The translations under genes and the position numbers were made by a program. From a virus: a DNA stretch of 64,000 nt. Shown in pieces: positions 72 to 6,520 of the stretch (positions within the stretch are counted from its first letter, which is position 1; the number at the start of each line of letters is the position of its first letter). A model generated the notes under the pieces. That model was not told where the DNA came from, searched no databases, and was given only the letters and a program-made list of their open reading frames with translations. The stretch lies in IMG/VR virus record IMGVR_UViG_3300035689_000004, positions 1 to 64,000 of that record. The stretch is one strand, 5' to 3'.

Positions 72-3000
72 ATGGCTGACCAAGAACATAAGTTAGAGTA
101 CGTCCTAAACCTAGACCCGAGTGGCTTCATTGAAGGGGCAGAACGCGCCATCAATAAGCAACAGGACCTGGAGCGCCATTTCAGTACCGGTGCGCCCTCA
201 GCGGCGGCAGCCTCAGCGGCAGGTGGTGGTGGTTCCTTTGAGCCATTGCCGCGCCCTACCACTGACACCGGTGGGACGCTGCCACCGCCCCCGCAGCCGA
301 CCACCGATAGGGGCACTTTGGGCGACTTTCAACAACGGGTGCAAGCGGTACAGGCGATCGCGCCCAATGCGCCGGACGTGGCCAATATGGCCGCCTCTCG
401 CCTGCAAACCTCGATCCTCCATGCGTCGTTGAAAGACCCGGATAGCGCTAAGGACTACCAGGACCTAATCAACTCCCTGCGAGAACTACGCAATTCATTG
501 CAGGAGGACGGCAAGAAAAAGGACGGTACCAACGAGCTATTGGGTTGGATGAAAGGTTTGGCACTTAGCCAGACCATCAATACCGGCACGTCCATTGCTA
601 CCAATGCCATGCAGGGCAATATTGCCACCGCTGCCGGTGGCGTCATTGGTGGTGTACTCGGGCTACTGGGCGGCCCTGCCGGGATGCTGACCGGTGCGTC
701 CATTGGTAGCGGCATTGGCAGCTTAGTGGATCGGGTTGCCAAGGGGGGCGAACAATCCCTTGCCTACGAAACCCAGATCGCGGACATTAACCAGCGCTTT
801 GGCGTAGGTAGCGTTGGCAGGCTGCGTAATTTTGAACTAGGCACCCAGAACGGGTTTAGAATTGAAGAGACCGCCGGGCTGATTGACCAGCTACGGGAAA
901 ACCGAGCCCTGAGTAATCCGGCCATGGCCGGACCCCTGGTGAATACCATCCAGGAGCTTACCCGGGCGCTAGGGCTTAACGTAGAAGCCACCGCCAATAT
1001 GGCTGGCATCTACTCCCGCACCGGTGGCGAGAAGGGCGCTGAGGGCGTTCGCAGCTACCTATCCGATGTGGTAGGTGGTGCTATCCGGGCTGGGTTTGAG
1101 TCCAACATCCAGCAGTACGCCGACATGATGGGCAGCGCCCGCATGCAAGCGGTGCAGCAGACCGGCCAGGGGATGAGCGATCGCGCCTTTGGCTTGCTCC
1201 AGGACGTGATGGCAGGGCTAACCGGCGGCAATTCCCGCACCTCCGCCCTGTTTAGAGATAACGTCCAGATGGCTGGGGCGGGCTTACAAAGCTTCCTGTC
1301 CTATGGCGGCACCGCTGACCCCTATAGCACCTCAGCGGCCTACCTAAGGCTGGCAGGCGTCGATGAGGCAGCCCTAGACTCGCGGTTTAATTCGCCTGAA
1401 CAAATGATGGCCAATGCGCAGCGAGTGCTGCGGATGACCACCAACCGGGTGCAGGGCATCTCCGGGATGGGTGCCGATGAATTTAGGGCGGCGGCGGCTA
1501 GTGATCCCAACTTTGTCCAGAACCTAATTGCTGGTAATTCAGGGCTGCAGCGGCAAACCTCAGCTACTTTGCAAGGCATTTTGGGGCGACAGGCGACCGC
1601 CCAGGACCTCCGTACCTTTGAAGAGCTGGCCAATATCAGCGCGGCCAATGGCGGACGGCTGCCGACCGGCCCGGGCGGCGATGGCGGACGGGTGGAGCAA
1701 TTGCTAGCCCAACTACAGGAAAGCCCAGGCGACCAAGCCCGCAAACTGGAGGCGGAGGCCAATAACCTGACCATCAAGGCGATGTCTAACTTGAATGAGG
1801 CATCGCTCAAGATGAAGGAAACCCAAGTGGAGTTACTTGAACAACTCAACGGTTTCCCGCTTAAGGAGATCGGTGATGGTATTGCTGCCGCCATGGATGG
1901 GGTGATCAAGTTTATCCGTGAGGCAGGGCCACAGCTAGCCAACCTGACTAGAGAAGGTATCGCCGCCTTCCATAAGCTCAGGGATATGGTGAATGAGTTT
2001 AGGAATAGTGCGATCGGTAGGCTGATCTTTGGGGGTGACACCAATTCAAGGGAAATCGGGGAACAGGTTGGCAGCGCCATCTCTAGCCCAATAGGGCGAT
2101 CCGCAGCACTTTCTTTCGCCGCCGGACTACCCGGACCTATTGGCTCTATAGCAACAGCGGCCAATATCGTTCGGACCAGAGAATTAGCCCCTGATGATGT
2201 CGCAAACATCGAACTTGCGCACGAAGGTGCTGAATATATTCAACGCCATGGACCCCTTGGCGAACACGCTAGGCGGATAATCCCCAGGGCTTTAAGAAGC
2301 GCTAGAAACTATATCGGCGGACTGATTGATGGTGCTTTCAATGACACCCCCGGCACCGTCACCGCCGCCCCTGGCTATAACGTTTTTGAGTTTGCCCCCG
2401 GGGACATTGTCTCCGCCCGCATGGGTGGCACCAGCGGCGGTGCATCGCTGACCGACATCTTCCAGGTACTTCGAGAGTCCAATCTGATGGACATCCAGGC
2501 GTACCAGACCGCTAGTGAGCAGCGCAAGCTATTGCAGGACGTGACCAACGACATCCTGAAGACCGACCTATTGATTCACGTCAATTCTGAAATCAACACC
2601 CAGCGGCAACTACCCAGCATTATCCAGATGATGCAAGCCTTTTTCCCTCAGCTTATTTCAGCGGTGGACTCCGTGCGGGAGGCATTGGTGTCAACGCTTA
2701 ATTCGGTGATGGGTGGAGCGGGCGGCGGTGGATTTGGAGGAGTTGATGCTTCTGCTGCAGCTGACATTGTGAACGCCGCGAAAGGCTGGGAAGGCGAAGA
2801 ATTTAGGCGAGGCGTTCAGGCGCAATGCGCTTTCTTTGTCAGGGAAGTATTTAAGCAAGCCGGACGCGATGTGGGCGTGGCGCGTGGATCGTCCCCTGGG
2901 CTTGCCGGAAGCTTTTTCGATGAAAGCGTTGGAGAACTTAGGCACACGCTAAATCCTGACGAGATCCCTGCTGGTGCGATCGTGGGGTTTGAAAATACCT

Positions 3001-3917
3001 ACGATGGCCCTGGCTCAGGTATTGGTGGGTTTACCCATGTCGGAATAGCGGTCGGCGACGGTCAAATGATTGACAGGTCCACAAGATCGGCGCCAGTAAG
3101 GCAACGACCTATCACAACTTTCCGCGCAGACAGCAGGGGCGGATATACATACATCATCCCTCACAGCATCCAAGGCACCCAGCCAGCGGCAGGTGGTGGC
3201 GGTAGCGTCAACCTCAGCACTGGCTACGAGTCCCTAGAACAGCTAAGCGGACAATTAACTAGCCTGGACCCCCGGTTCAACACCAATACCCCAGACGGAC
3301 GGGCCGCACTCGCGATCGCCTTAGCGATCGGCGGGACTGAGGTTTATGGACGCGGGGCAACAGGCACCGACTTCTTTACCCGACGCGGCGGAACGGGTAA
3401 CAACATGCTGGGGTTTGCTCAATTCAACCTTGGCTTTCACCGAGCCAACACTGACACTCCAGGCGAATATACCGATTTCCTGGCGGACATCCTGACCGGC
3501 GATCGCGCCCAGCCAAATGGACGCCAAGCACGAAACTGGAGTGCCGAATTATCTAGGGCAGTACAGAGCGGGCAAATTGGCAGCGGAGCGGAGTTGCAGC
3601 AATGGTTAAGGCGAAGCGGGCTAGGCGGTAGCAATTGGCAGGGCATTGACGACGGCTGGAGTCGGGTTCCTGGACTTCCTGACCGGTTATTTCAAATGCT
3701 TAGGAGCGGCGGCGACAACCGCCAAGCCTCCAACAACCGCACCACCAACATTACTGTCAACATCGCCAGCGCCACCGACCCCGCCCGCACCCGGCAGGAG
3801 GTATTCAACGGCATCCATGCCGCAATGCCCTACCTGGACGAATTTGAGCAAGTCCGCCGAAATAGCAGCGATCGCAACCCGCGCAATAGTGGCAATCTAT
3901 CGCCGGTTTACGGCTAA
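72..3917 (+). CDS. Tail tape measure protein with C-terminal NlpC/P60-like and putative lysozyme-like domains
   Basis: 1281 aa, Ala/Gly-rich helical body upstream of baseplate genes; QCAFFVREVF...FTHVGIAVGDG (Cys/His of NlpC/P60); AIGGTE...GFAQFN resembles a lytic transglycosylase motif. Confidence 0.8.
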   Translation: MADQEHKLEYVLNLDPSGFIEGAERAINKQQDLERHFSTGAPSAAAASAAGGGGSFEPLPRPTTDTGGTLPPPPQPTTDRGTLGDFQQRVQAVQAIAPNAPDVANMAASRLQTSILHASLKDPDSAKDYQDLINSLRELRNSLQEDGKKKDGTNELLGWMKGLALSQTINTGTSIATNAMQGNIATAAGGVIGGVLGLLGGPAGMLTGASIGSGIGSLVDRVAKGGEQSLAYETQIADINQRFGVGSVGRLRNFELGTQNGFRIEETAGLIDQLRENRALSNPAMAGPLVNTIQELTRALGLNVEATANMAGIYSRTGGEKGAEGVRSYLSDVVGGAIRAGFESNIQQYADMMGSARMQAVQQTGQGMSDRAFGLLQDVMAGLTGGNSRTSALFRDNVQMAGAGLQSFLSYGGTADPYSTSAAYLRLAGVDEAALDSRFNSPEQMMANAQRVLRMTTNRVQGISGMGADEFRAAAASDPNFVQNLIAGNSGLQRQTSATLQGILGRQATAQDLRTFEELANISAANGGRLPTGPGGDGGRVEQLLAQLQESPGDQARKLEAEANNLTIKAMSNLNEASLKMKETQVELLEQLNGFPLKEIGDGIAAAMDGVIKFIREAGPQLANLTREGIAAFHKLRDMVNEFRNSAIGRLIFGGDTNSREIGEQVGSAISSPIGRSAALSFAAGLPGPIGSIATAANIVRTRELAPDDVANIELAHEGAEYIQRHGPLGEHARRIIPRALRSARNYIGGLIDGAFNDTPGTVTAAPGYNVFEFAPGDIVSARMGGTSGGASLTDIFQVLRESNLMDIQAYQTASEQRKLLQDVTNDILKTDLLIHVNSEINTQRQLPSIIQMMQAFFPQLISAVDSVREALVSTLNSVMGGAGGGGFGGVDASAAADIVNAAKGWEGEEFRRGVQAQCAFFVREVFKQAGRDVGVARGSSPGLAGSFFDESVGELRHTLNPDEIPAGAIVGFENTYDGPGSGIGGFTHVGIAVGDGQMIDRSTRSAPVRQRPITTFRADSRGGYTYIIPHSIQGTQPAAGGGGSVNLSTGYESLEQLSGQLTSLDPRFNTNTPDGRAALAIALAIGGTEVYGRGATGTDFFTRRGGTGNNMLGFAQFNLGFHRANTDTPGEYTDFLADILTGDRAQPNGRQARNWSAELSRAVQSGQIGSGAELQQWLRRSGLGGSNWQGIDDGWSRVPGLPDRLFQMLRSGGDNRQASNNRTTNITVNIASATDPARTRQEVFNGIHAAMPYLDEFEQVRRNSSDRNPRNSGNLSPVYG

Positions 3918-3946
3918 AGCAAAAGCCCCCAGCGAAGGCTAGGGGC
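3918..3946 (-). terminator. Intrinsic terminator of antisense cassette
   Basis: Minus strand GCCCCTAGC-CTTC-GCTGGGGGC-TTTTGCTT. Confidence 0.7.
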
Positions 3947-3980
3947 GGAGAGTGAAGCAATGCAGTAGCGCCAAATCTTA

Positions 3981-4292
3981 TCAGTACGCCGTAGCCTTGA
4001 TGGGGTGTCCTTCAGCATCCTGATAGCACACCTCAAACACTTCTCCGTGAACATTCAGTCTCGTGACATGCGCGAAACGATGATCCACGGAACAGTGCTC
4101 CGGCAGCCCCAAGCACTGAGACTCGGGAATCCTGGCGGCGGCAAGATGCTGAAAATAAGAACCCGCCTCTGTGCGAGATCCAGGTATTTCTAGCCATTCA
4201 ATTTCGGGAATGGTGGGAGGATGCTGGGAGATCAAGCTCCCGTCCCTTACATCGCAAATAACGAGCTTGACGTCTTCAACCTTAGTATTCAT
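3981..4292 (-). CDS. Hypothetical protein (stand-alone antisense cassette)
   Basis: 103 aa ORF with GGAGG RBS, own promoter and terminator. Confidence 0.7.
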   Translation of the reverse strand: MNTKVEDVKLVICDVRDGSLISQHPPTIPEIEWLEIPGSRTEAGSYFQHLAAARIPESQCLGLPEHCSVDHRFAHVTRLNVHGEVFEVCYQDAEGHPIKATAY

Positions 4293-4322
4293 GACTGCCC
4301 TCCAATGGCTTTCAACAATTTC

Positions 4323-4352
4323 AATATACCGCCCTTTCTATCGAATTGTCAA
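4323..4352 (-). promoter_or_regulatory. sigma-70 promoter
   Basis: TTGACA-18 nt-TATATT. Confidence 0.7.
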
Positions 4353-4453
4353 CACTAAACGATAGCATACTGAAGCAGATGGCGAATTTTCTTTGCCCTT
4401 AACCTTTCCCTTAAAGCGTCGTCATTAAAGTGCATGGTTCTTTCCAAATGGGT

Positions 4454-4484
4454 AAGCAAAGGCCCCTAGCAAGGGCTAGAGGCG
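4454..4484 (-). terminator. Intrinsic terminator ending the csx3 unit
   Basis: Minus strand GCCTCTAGC-CCTT-GCTAGGGGC-CTTTGCTT; similar to the 3918 terminator. Confidence 0.6.
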
Positions 4485-4672
4485 GAGGGAATCAATTGCC
4501 TGTTTAATGGCCCGGTCAGGCTCCGGGTGTTGCTCAATTAGCCGCCGCAGTTCGCGGTAGGCCGCTGAGCGACAGCCGGGTATCCGCAGTGTGGTGTTGT
4601 AGACTTCGGTGCCCTCGGTGGGGCGACCTTCGCCAGCAATACCCCGGGCAGATACCCGGTAGTTGCGGCCAC

Positions 4673-4984
4673 TTAGGCTAGGACTGGCTGAAAAGACAGC
4701 ACAGTGCCTGGACGGGGGGCGGACGGGTGATGGGTGCTGACGACCACCGCACCGAGGCGGGGGTCACGGCAGGCTACCCATCGGCTAACGTGATAGTGGT
4801 GGGCCATGGCCGCATAGAGCCAGATCGGTCCCCTGCCAGAGAGGACGACCCCACCGGTGGGGTCGATGGCTGGCAGCTCAAGGCTGCTTAAGACATCAGG
4901 GCTCAAATCGCCGTCGAGAGTGAACTCGACAAGGGTGGCCTGATGGCCATTGAGGATAACGGAAGTGGTTGAAAAGTTGATCAT
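4673..4984 (-). CDS. csx3: CRISPR-associated Csx3/Crn3 family cA4 ring nuclease
   Basis: GVVLSGRGPIWLY..AHHYH...VACRDPRLGAVVVSTH matches the Csx3 signature, including the His pair and DPR motif; 103 aa as in stand-alone Csx3. Confidence 0.9.
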   Translation of the reverse strand: MINFSTTSVILNGHQATLVEFTLDGDLSPDVLSSLELPAIDPTGGVVLSGRGPIWLYAAMAHHYHVSRWVACRDPRLGAVVVSTHHPSAPRPGTVLSFQPVLA

Positions 4985-5046
4985 GTTTGCCTCATCAGTA
5001 CCGGGGTTACAACCACCCGGCAGACCCAGCTAGGGCTGGGTTTCGG

Positions 5047-5535
5047 CTATTCAGGCCAAGCGTAGTCCCAGAACAGGAGGAACCTGCTCCAGGCCCATTC
5101 GGGGGTGTCATCCCCAAGCGGAAAGGCCGCCTCCAGCAAGAAATCCATGCAAGAGGGCAAAACCTGCCCGTAGTCCTGCCCGTAGTCGAGGAAATCGCCT
5201 GCTAGTTTGAGGGGAACTTCCACCCCCCCAATTTCGACGACATGGGACTCATCCCACGCCGGATCGATGTGACACCAATGGACGTACTGTCCTGATATGT
5301 CGTCGTAACGGGAGCAGTACATCTCCTCTGCTACGACGGATCGCTGGACTACAAAGTCTAACGATCCAACACCCTCGCTACCCTCATAAGTGAGGGTCCG
5401 GGTTGTCTTTTCAATCCAGAGGCCCTGCTGCGAAAGCCTTTGTTTCTGGGTCAGATCTTCTTTGGAAGCAGGCTCATCCCAGCATTGGCCTAAAGCCTTT
5501 GAGATCGCCAGACCCTTGCCCCATGGTTCAGCCAT
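5047..5535 (-). CDS. Acidic hypothetical protein, first gene of the csx3 unit
   Basis: 162 aa, AGGAGG RBS. Confidence 0.75.
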   Translation of the reverse strand: MAEPWGKGLAISKALGQCWDEPASKEDLTQKQRLSQQGLWIEKTTRTLTYEGSEGVGSLDFVVQRSVVAEEMYCSRYDDISGQYVHWCHIDPAWDESHVVEIGGVEVPLKLAGDFLDYGQDYGQVLPSCMDFLLEAAFPLGDDTPEWAWSRFLLFWDYAWPE

Positions 5536-5580
5536 AACTTTTCCTCCTAAAACTTGCGGGCTTCACTCGCCCATGTCATT

Positions 5581-5609
5581 ACTATAGTGTTTCGTATACG
5601 AAACGACAA
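5581..5609 (-). promoter_or_regulatory. sigma-70-type promoter with 16-bp palindromic operator
   Basis: TTGTCG-17 nt-TATAGT; perfect palindrome GTTTCGTATACGAAAC at 5589-5604. Confidence 0.7.
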
Positions 5610-5728
5610 TAGTTAGTTAGTAGTAATTTTGCAAATTTACAACCCTATCGCCAATCTGCGCGAACCGATAGTATCCTAGAACTAGGGTGGGCATCGTCTA
5701 ATCAATAGCCCTACAGCTTTCCAGAAAA

Positions 5729-6520
5729 ATGCACCAGCTAGCCCTGTTCAATACCATTGACAATAAGCCAATGGCGGACGATCGCATCCGCACCTACCGT
5801 GGCGACGCGATCGCGGTCCTGGCCAACCTACTGGCTAAGGGAACCACCTGGGACTATTGCCTAACCTCCCCTCCCTACTACGGCCAGATAGACTATGGCC
5901 ACGAAGGGCAACACGGGCTAGAGGGTAGCCTTGACGCCTACCTGGATACTCAGCAGCAGGTTTTTAGGCTGGTGTACCAAGGGTTAGCAGAAGGCGGGGT
6001 GTGCTGGATTGTGATAGGTGATACCAGCAACAACTACAGCCCGGTACGCGCCAAGGGGCAACGGCGACAAGCAGGAGAATGGCTCTACCGCCGCAGCCTG
6101 GAGGACGACTACCGCGAAAAGGAACCCTTGCTAGTGCCTATCCGCCTAGCGGAGCGGCTACGGGCTGATGGCTGGGTAATGCGGAAGATATTGATTTGGG
6201 ACAAGGGGCAAAGTAGCCAAGTAGGCAAGGGTGATGCGCCGCCTGAAACCCATGAGTATGTCCTGATGATGGGCAAGAGCGGCAAAAACGGGCGACCGAT
6301 GCTGAACACCAAGCCGCTGCGATCGTCGGTGCTGGTGCATCGTCCCTGTGGCCACTCTAACCACCCCTGCCCATTCCCTGACTCATTAGTCCACGAATTA
6401 TTGTCTAGCGCCACCGTGGCCGGAGCGACGGTGCTAGACCCTTACTTTGGCACCGGCACCACCGGACGGGTAGCGTCCCTGTTGGGCATGAAATCTATCG
6501 GCATTGACCTAGGAGCATAA
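5729..6520 (+). CDS. Orphan DNA methyltransferase, beta class (N4-C/N6-A)
   Basis: TSPPY catalytic motif precedes HPCPFP and LDPYFGTGTT SAM-binding motif; no adjacent restriction enzyme. Confidence 0.9.
   Translation: MHQLALFNTIDNKPMADDRIRTYRGDAIAVLANLLAKGTTWDYCLTSPPYYGQIDYGHEGQHGLEGSLDAYLDTQQQVFRLVYQGLAEGGVCWIVIGDTSNNYSPVRAKGQRRQAGEWLYRRSLEDDYREKEPLLVPIRLAERLRADGWVMRKILIWDKGQSSQVGKGDAPPETHEYVLMMGKSGKNGRPMLNTKPLRSSVLVHRPCGHSNHPCPFPDSLVHELLSSATVAGATVLDPYFGTGTTGRVASLLGMKSIGIDLGA

Follow-up and report, generated by a model that had tools for sequence, protein, structure and literature searches.

A stand-alone csx3 gene in a tailed phage

The IMG/VR virus record IMGVR_UViG_3300035689_000004 is a linear contig of 92,546 bp with an estimated completeness of 87%, and its first 64,000 nucleotides (nt), referred to here as the window, contain a csx3/crn3 gene (4673..4984, minus strand) that runs from ATG to TAA and encodes a stand-alone ring-nuclease homologue of 103 amino acids (aa). 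The gene belongs to an operon in which a promoter with an embedded palindrome, an open reading frame (ORF162), a hammerhead ribozyme, csx3, a small conserved ORF and a terminator follow one another, and csx3 is antisense to both flanking genes, which encode a tape-measure-like protein and a DNA methylase. On the sequence evidence set out below, we regard this protein as a credible candidate for a new kind of phage anti-CRISPR, one that would act on the cyclic tetra-adenylate (cA4) signal of type III CRISPR systems, which cells themselves eliminate by means of Csx3/Crn3.

All parts of the full-length Csx3 signature that a preliminary description of this DNA had picked out (SGRGPIWL, AHHYH and DPRLGAVVV..H) are present, and the protein scores well above the curated cut-offs of the relevant hidden Markov models, with 97.7 bits (cut-off 21; E 3.5e-28; profile positions 2-77 of 78) for Pfam PF09620 (Cas_csx3) and 97.1 bits (cut-off 55.4) for the NCBIfam equivalog model TIGR02579, named “CRISPR-associated ring nuclease Crn3/Csx3”. 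It is also matched by four PADLOC Csx3 models and by the solved Csx3 chains of Archaeoglobus fulgidus (AfCsx3; 3WZI, 6VJG and 6YUD, E about 1e-21). An AlphaFold2 model based on 25 homologues has a mean pLDDT of 93.3, and the 13 best matches to this model in a Foldseek search of the PDB are all AfCsx3 (TM 0.77-0.88, E about 1e-11), superposition on the complex of AfCsx3 with cA4 (6YUD) giving TM values of 0.83-0.87. The phage protein thus shares family, fold and a stand-alone length of about 100 aa with the Csx3 proteins of A. fulgidus (3WZG/3WZH/3WZI, 6VJG and 6YUD) and M. mazei, at roughly 40-50% identity.

In AfCsx3 the residues in contact with cA4 are I22, S44, G45, R46, I49, R71 and H80, I22 touching the ligand through its main chain only, and cleavage requires H57, H60, D69, R71 and H80, which are distributed between an H60 face (H57, H60, H80) and a D69 face (D69, R71) (PMC7371418). 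When these roles are transferred through a HMMER alignment, I22, S44, G45, R46 and I49 correspond to L27, S49, G50, R51 and I54 of the phage protein, and H57, H60, D69, R71 and H80 to H62, H65, D74, R76 and H85. All of these positions with the exception of L27 are invariant across a 25-sequence alignment, and the S-G-R-G-P-I loop that contacts cA4 is likewise kept. A homodimer, as formed by AfCsx3, is predicted with a score of 0.75 (best control 0.01), which passes a mark reached by 20 of 30 proteins solved as one-chain pairs and by 1 of 23 solved as single chains; contact agreement between runs is at least 96% and the pLDDT of the partner at least 91. Because the AfCsx3 dimer has already been solved and may be remembered by the predictor, this result is better read as a likeness than as independent proof.

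Comparison with a second copy, carried by a lake metagenome contig (L088, see below), gives a ratio of non-synonymous to synonymous substitution (dN/dS) of 0.17 for csx3 (Nei-Gojobori), and the gene is a real coding sequence under purifying selection. In its sequence the phage protein is an ordinary member of the known Csx3/Crn3 family and agrees with the family in every feature of the protein that is open to computational examination. Mn-dependent cleavage of cA4 to A2-P, by tetramers arranged head-to-tail, would be expected of it by homology.

Phage context and probable host

Pfam searches over all 103 ORFs of the record identified capsid, portal, baseplate J, DpdA, a sigma-70 factor, DnaN, a resolvase, methylases and helicases, and PHROGs searches identified portal and tail sheath (phrog_279, E 3.8e-50), the sheath lying at the other end of the contig. 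By its gene content this lake-water record is a tailed phage. Csx3 is the only cas family found by the Pfam pass; the absence of further cas genes and of an array, remarked on earlier for the 64-kb window, extends to the whole 92,546-bp record as far as its estimated 87% completeness allows, with no RAMP gene, Cas10, CRISPR array or type III locus in either. The csx3 gene is virus-encoded and sits at a variable accessory locus (described below) of a record that lacks the system it would target.

The left flank is a gene for a 1281-aa tape-measure-like protein (72..3917, plus strand), so named from its size, position and composition. On one side of it is the tail sheath gene at the other contig end, on the other side the gene for baseplate J. 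Tape-measure models in PHROGs and Pfam gave no match to the protein, and its sole family match is a weak one to NlpC/P60. On the right is an N6/N4 DNA methylase gene (5729..6520, plus strand; PF01555, E 4.3e-29). The orientation and flanks of the antisense cassette are accordingly as first described.

The DnaN protein of the phage has relatives of 89-94% identity on other phage contigs, and its nearest cellular homologues (about 38% identity) are uniformly cyanobacterial (Leptolyngbyaceae, Phormidesmis, Pseudanabaena and others), so the host is likely to be a cyanobacterium. Cyanobacterial genomes that have Csx3 homologues also contain Cas10, which in one of them (G010) is located about 2 kb from csx3. 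A comparison of the first 20 kb with 401 cyanobacterial genomes, in which two candidates per genome were scored and which was not a true spacer search, returned only a homologue of csx3-AAA and a peptidase-like match. The phage also encodes DpdA, an enzyme of 7-deazaguanine DNA modification, its own beta clamp, a giant protein of 2493 aa and several SNF2/ResIII helicases (L003:1722-2459, L002:18416-19537, L002:1289-8767), a repertoire that is consistent with a heavy counter-defence load.

An accessory block that is absent from sister phages

The csx3 operon is located within an accessory block of 1,707 bp (3924..5630) that follows the tape-measure-like gene, comprises two minus-strand transcription units and is bounded by a 5-nt direct repeat, GCAAA, at 3919-3923 and 5626-5630. 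Five IMG/VR contigs represent sister phages, with DnaN proteins of 89-94% identity, and none of the five encodes Csx3. In three of them (G001, G004 and G005; about 90% nucleotide identity) position 3923 of the window is joined directly to 5631 and the block is missing: the match covers 3730-3923, at the end of the tape-measure-like gene, and resumes from 5631 onward, upstream of the methylase, the junction reading TAA-AGCAAA followed across the joint by TTTGCAACC. The same empty-site joint (3918 to 5631) is present on a contig from a lake-water metagenome. A further sister phage, G002, is without the 1.7-kb block and contains instead another insert, of about 313 bp, that ends shortly ahead of the start of the methylase gene (L176:1188-1500). 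The site before the methylase appears from these comparisons to be a hot spot for accessory DNA.

The operon is preceded by a sigma-70-like promoter (TTGTCG-17-TATAGT, 5581..5609, minus strand) detected in a promoter scan, and the spacer of this promoter contains a perfect 16-nt palindrome, GTTTCGTATACGAAAC (5589-5604), that is unique in the window. Promoter, palindrome and 5' untranslated region (UTR) are 92% conserved in L088, where the -35 element is TTGACA, and the palindrome looks like a candidate operator. The first gene of the operon, ORF162 (5047..5535, minus strand), is an orphan with no match in Pfam, NCBIfam or PHROGs and a poor Atlas model; among 1.84 billion representatives only one cluster, 62% identical, is related to it. 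The operon ends in an intrinsic-terminator-like hairpin (4462..4483, minus strand; terminator scan) that is conserved in L088.

The second unit of the block (3925..4352, minus strand) consists of a near-consensus promoter (TTGACA-18-TATATT, 4352-4323), ORF103 (4292-3981) and a terminator (3946-3925). ORF103 is also an orphan, with no Pfam, NCBIfam or PHROG match and, like ORF162, with no function suggested by the Atlas or by the search of 1.84 billion representatives, and its unit is missing from the sister phages along with the csx3 operon. One metatranscriptome run contained a single 151-nt contig on ORF103 and none on csx3, which is uninformative on transcription either way.

A type II hammerhead ribozyme abutting csx3

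The 62-nt gap between the stop codon of ORF162 and the ATG of csx3, together with a few bases on each side, is entirely occupied by a type II hammerhead ribozyme (4981..5048, minus strand). It matches Rfam RF02276 over model positions 1-66 of 66 with 51.4 bits (gathering threshold 37; E 3.6e-9), its CUGAUGA...GAAA core is intact, and the minimum free energy fold gives stems I-III. This is the sole Rfam match in the 92.5-kb phage. The ribozyme is kept in L088 and in L089, a contig that overlaps L088, with differences confined to the loop of stem III; the exact variant was not found in other IMG/VR contigs.

Cleavage is predicted after GGGUC, between positions 5023 and 5022, so that a leader of 38 nt would precede the csx3 AUG. 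Five bases ahead of this AUG is a GAGG motif that shares sequence with the ribozyme core and with the 3-bp stem II, from which we infer that the ribosome-binding site of csx3 becomes accessible once the ribozyme has cleaved and the 5' fragment has left.

A small conserved ORF downstream of csx3

Between csx3 and the terminator lies a small conserved ORF (4476..4640, minus strand) in the -1 frame relative to csx3, a frame that is already open from inside csx3. It remains open for 74 codons past the csx3 region, to a TAG that overlaps the terminator hairpin, and contains no ATG, GTG or TTG (4476-4712). Relative to L088 the small ORF shows 11 synonymous and 2 non-synonymous changes (dN/dS 0.056), the other two frames giving values of 1.5-2.0, and on the strength of their dN/dS values csx3 and the small ORF are both genuine coding sequences under constraint. 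Near the end of csx3, some 100 nt on either side of and including its stop codon are nearly invariant between the two elements, and csx3 itself is saturated at synonymous sites. A 98%-identical version of 65 aa that begins with GTG has been called as a gene on other contigs (P0180).

The only family signal of the small ORF is a sub-threshold one (E 0.005-0.04) to PF01035, the winged-helix DNA-binding domain of MGMT. A ribbon-helix-helix (RHH) protein was considered and rejected, there being no RHH_1 match and no similarity to the true RHH/BrnA protein encoded by L088. From its position and the palindrome alone, the small ORF may encode a DNA-binding protein like those of anti-CRISPR-associated (aca) genes. 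The sequence suggests two candidate routes for its translation: tRNA-Phe may slip by -1 on the U-run at about 4694-4691, giving a Csx3 fusion of about 172 aa, or translation may start at the ATT at 4640, giving a product of about 54 aa. No canonical X XXY YYZ slippery heptamer is found at the candidate frameshift site; the fold around the csx3 stop codon, evaluated as a possible frameshift stimulator, has an indecisive z-score of -2.3.

The same cassette in a second phage lineage and in lake populations

L088 and L089 are lake metagenome contigs that are 99.8% identical over a 2-kb overlap and together span about 11.1 kb. Their Csx3 is 76% identical to the window copy, and the DNA of L088 is 92-99% identical to the window across the promoter with its palindrome, the 5' UTR, the hammerhead, the last 36 nt of csx3, the -1-frame ORF and the terminator, with synonymous sites saturated in the core of csx3. 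In place of ORF162 the first ORF of the L088 operon encodes an unrelated protein of 189 aa, and the L088/L089 element has no other gene in common with the phage studied here. Its Cas6e-like gene has relatives of 70-79% identity on two IMG/VR phage contigs of 73-74 kb, one with terminal repeats, and neither of these encodes Csx3. In one of the two, G418, the 1.2 kb from promoter to terminator are replaced by about 385 bp between flanks of 91% identity; since L088/L089 carry the cassette and G418 has this other segment instead, the cassette is polymorphic in the second lineage also. On this sequence comparison it is present or absent in two unrelated phage lineages.

The Cas6e-like gene of L088 (PF08798, E 8.7e-25) is solitary and lies beside at least seven irregularly spaced hairpins of the form GAnAAACCCCCAC-N4-GTGGGGA (L088:4738-5724, 2977-3456). 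These may represent a phage RNA-processing enzyme together with its sites.

Nine lake-water metagenome runs, released in 2020 and 2024, contain the 1.8-kb region, as judged by the presence of at least half of the sampled words; one of these runs is possibly the source sample, and the contigs of three runs were compared with the window. Every part of the block, and its left junction as well, is represented by contigs that are identical to the window; of the contigs listed, none spans the block as a whole. Two csx3 alleles that differ by about 13% in DNA (4724-5024) co-occur in the same lake metagenomes at comparable depth, and one allele has a compensating 1-nt deletion and insertion at 4691/4687 that changes Q to S near the C-terminus. 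The lake runs also show joints and loose ends that match the L088-type first ORF and its upstream sequence.

Distribution and relationships of viral Csx3

When 2.9 million IMG/VR contigs were scanned twice, each time with a limited set of patterns that makes the viral count a lower bound, ten other candidate contigs emerged, of which nine were checked. In all nine the protein scores above the Pfam cut-off and stands alone, at about 92-138 aa (one open frame has 213 aa), and no RAMP gene is present. These carriers range from 29 to 65% GC and include a complete genome of 79.6 kb with terminal repeats, which shares two tail genes with the phage described here, and a 97%-complete genome of 273 kb; in these carriers the neighbours of csx3 encode primase, ribonucleotide reductase, helicases, terminase and a cell-wall hydrolase. 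The carriers are not equally safe, as some copies lie near contig ends and one record (G417) is a provirus. Single-protein scans of viral and metagenome contigs returned no close relatives, whereas alignment-based scans found them. A tblastn search of 50,697 GenBank phage records, a set that possibly excludes records of or near this genome, gave no Csx3 match; three plasmids do have a tblastn match to the phage protein.

No report of a viral Crn3 was found in the literature searched for Csx3 in connection with cyanophages, viral genomes or anti-CRISPRs, in line with the literature check called for at the outset. Hoikkala et al. (2025) applied models of Crn1-3, Csx15, Csx16 and Csx20 to 28,114 phage genomes and recorded 36 genomes with AcrIII-1, 4 with Csx20, 2 with Csx16 and none with Crn3 (PMC12409355).

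Among 185,579 species-representative genomes the best match to the phage protein is 73% identical over 72 residues and comes from an archaeal-labelled contig of a metagenome-assembled genome; cyanobacterial copies are 41-58% identical. Almost all of the cyanobacterial homologues are Csx3-AAA fusions of 306-326 aa (L017, L024, L026, L031, L040, L043, L044 and L183), and every viral copy examined is a bare Csx3 domain. A quick tree, the comparison proposed in the preliminary description, groups the phage clade with the cyanobacterial copies, with SH-aLRT support of only 89-92. The interpretation given in that description, an intact ring nuclease that is phage-borne and unaccompanied by CRISPR genes and hence a candidate type III anti-CRISPR, is favoured by every computational test, and the gene is accessory as well. 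For the further proposal that the phage captured an off-switch of its host, no donor was identified: the nearest cellular relatives, N-terminal domains of the cyanobacterial fusions, are at most 58% identical to the phage protein, and the copies closest to it (74-94%) travel in a cassette that phages share.

A probable anti-type III CRISPR function

We think it probable that the phage counters type III CRISPR signalling with a functional ring nuclease for cA4, and that the enzyme is carried on a mobile, ribozyme-processed and probably self-regulated cassette. By homology, an Mn-dependent Csx3 dimer would stack head-to-tail on cA4 and cut it to linear A2. Expressed from the phage genome inside a cyanobacterium, the enzyme would remove the cA4 produced by a type III complex that senses phage RNA. 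The effectors that depend on cA4 (Csx1/Csm6, Can, Cam and similar) would consequently remain inactive, allowing the phage to escape, and it is for this reason that the protein would be an anti-CRISPR. The palindrome-bearing promoter would drive a variable first ORF in a self-contained, horizontally exchanged operon, the type II hammerhead would cut the transcript 38 nt before the csx3 AUG, freeing the GAGG site and leaving a 5'-OH end, and the small conserved downstream protein would probably repress the promoter in the manner of Aca proteins. Members of the Csx3 family can act against immunity, as is seen in E. coli, where the M. mazei protein relieves part of the type III immunity that Csx1 mediates (PMC7371418). 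Among ring nucleases from viruses, AcrIII-1 and a SAVED protein are already established as anti-CRISPRs (PMC12751052).

Several points weigh against this interpretation. With the record 87% complete, a type III locus could lie in the missing part, and the placement beside the cyanobacterial copies in the tree is without support of 95% or more. Cellular Crn3 is reported to be cooperative, and the M. mazei enzyme relieved immunity in E. coli less than did AcrIII-1 (PMC7371418); for these reasons Csx3 may be a weaker anti-CRISPR than AcrIII-1. The signal of the host type III system could be cA4, cyclic tri-adenylate (cA3), cyclic hexa-adenylate (cA6) or SAM-AMP. Moreover, the purpose of the cassette is read from csx3 alone, its first gene and the small ORF being functionally unassigned.

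It is unlikely, and would be a variant of the anti-CRISPR function rather than a contradiction of it, that a cA4-active enzyme mainly serves lysogeny by damping the toxicity of type III self-targeting elicited by prophage transcripts and so protecting the lysogen. A serine recombinase of the Resolvase family in the record suggests that the phage may be temperate, one of the IMG/VR carriers is classed as a provirus, and the cassette follows the usual pattern of morons in being antisense to the late tail operon and in having a sigma-70-type promoter and a terminator to itself. However, neither a lysogen nor an attachment site was seen, and the palindrome, together with the small ORF behind csx3, recalls acr-aca operons, whose expression comes early during infection. 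That csx3 is not truly phage-borne or not functional, whether as host DNA at a provirus edge, through chimeric assembly or as a decaying passenger, is highly unlikely. The contig is linear and metagenomic, with csx3 4-5 kb from one end, and some of the other IMG/VR copies are also close to contig ends; on the other hand, phage genes are present on both sides, sister phages show the exact empty site, every part of the block and its left junction recur on lake contigs without any difference from the window (though none listed spans all of the block), the catalytic residues are intact under a dN/dS of 0.17, and no copy of more than 73% identity occurs among the 185,579 species representatives.

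The protein might instead cleave or sequester another cyclic oligonucleotide, such as a product of CBASS, trim RNA 3' ends, or form the cA4-sensing half of a regulator together with the small ORF. AfCsx3 was first described as an RNA deadenylase (PMC7371418), the ring nucleases Csx15 and Crn4 are reported to have broad specificity, and the lack of a start codon in the -1-frame ORF makes fusion to Csx3 by frameshifting conceivable. We nevertheless find such functions improbable, as all residues for contact with cA4 and its cleavage are kept, Crn3 is reported to be cA4-specific (PMC12409355), the frameshift site offers no canonical X XXY YYZ heptamer, and the homologue of the small ORF elsewhere is called with a GTG start. 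More doubtful still is an elaborate form of the regulator, in which a -1 slip would fuse cA4-binding Csx3 to the DNA-binding-like peptide to give a cA4-responsive regulator acting on the palindromic operator; the module would then be autonomous, ribozyme-processed, self-regulated and exchanged between unrelated cyanophages, and the phage would both sense and answer the type III alarm.

Comparison with known systems and significance

Under the anti-CRISPR interpretation favoured here, the phage protein would have the same role as AcrIII-1 (DUF1874, the cellular form of which is Crn2), namely that of a virus enzyme which destroys cA4 to disarm type III effectors. The folds are unrelated and the chemistry differs, AcrIII-1 working without metal and Csx3 requiring both Mn and a dimer-dimer sandwich. 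The phage protein is not a member of the AcrIII-1 family, as only Csx3 families match it and its predicted fold is that of Csx3. AcrIII-2/viral SAVED and the Csx16 and Csx20 proteins of phages (PMC12409355) are likewise phage members of cellular families that bind or cleave cA4, but the families are different. The nearest cellular relatives in the tree are the Csx3-AAA proteins of cyanobacteria, the probable host phylum (PADLOC; L017, L026 and L183), which lie beside Cas10 or CARF genes; these CRISPR-linked proteins of 306-326 aa have a C-terminal AAA ATPase and at most 58% identity to the phage copy, which corresponds to the bare N-domain. In contrast to the Csx3 of A. fulgidus and M. mazei, which belong to CRISPR loci, the phage copy is found on a tailed phage without type III genes, in a mobile promoter-to-terminator cassette and behind a hammerhead. 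The new elements are the viral setting, the architecture of the cassette and its exchange between phages. With an inverted repeat in its promoter and a small gene at its end the operon resembles acr-aca operons, but the small ORF has neither a recognised helix-turn-helix or RHH domain nor a start codon.

Only two viral ring-nuclease families, AcrIII-1 and viral SAVED, have so far been characterised as type III anti-CRISPRs, and Crn3 is a candidate for a third. Its presence and absence in two phage lineages and the co-existence of alleles in the same lakes indicate that csx3 behaves as a mobile counter-defence cassette. If active, the protein would represent a compact Mn-dependent off-switch of about 100 aa for cA4 signalling from a mesophilic source, and its activity would be a pointer to type III CRISPR as a genuine source of selection acting on cyanophages in fresh water.

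Prophages are known to contain type II hammerheads next to single genes, in a role that is still unsettled (Perreault et al. 2011, PMC3088659), and the phage operon resembles these cases in having a full-consensus hammerhead directly upstream of a single accessory gene. We found no link between a hammerhead and a ring-nuclease or anti-CRISPR gene in the literature searched. An active csx3 would provide a natural hammerhead wired directly to an immune-evasion gene, and the long-open question of the role of phage hammerheads would become testable. A second self-cleaving ribozyme occurs close to a viral csx3 on another contig, L190, where a type-P5 twister (RF02684, 61 bits; L190:3472-3526, plus strand) is located one small gene downstream of csx3 (2830-3099).

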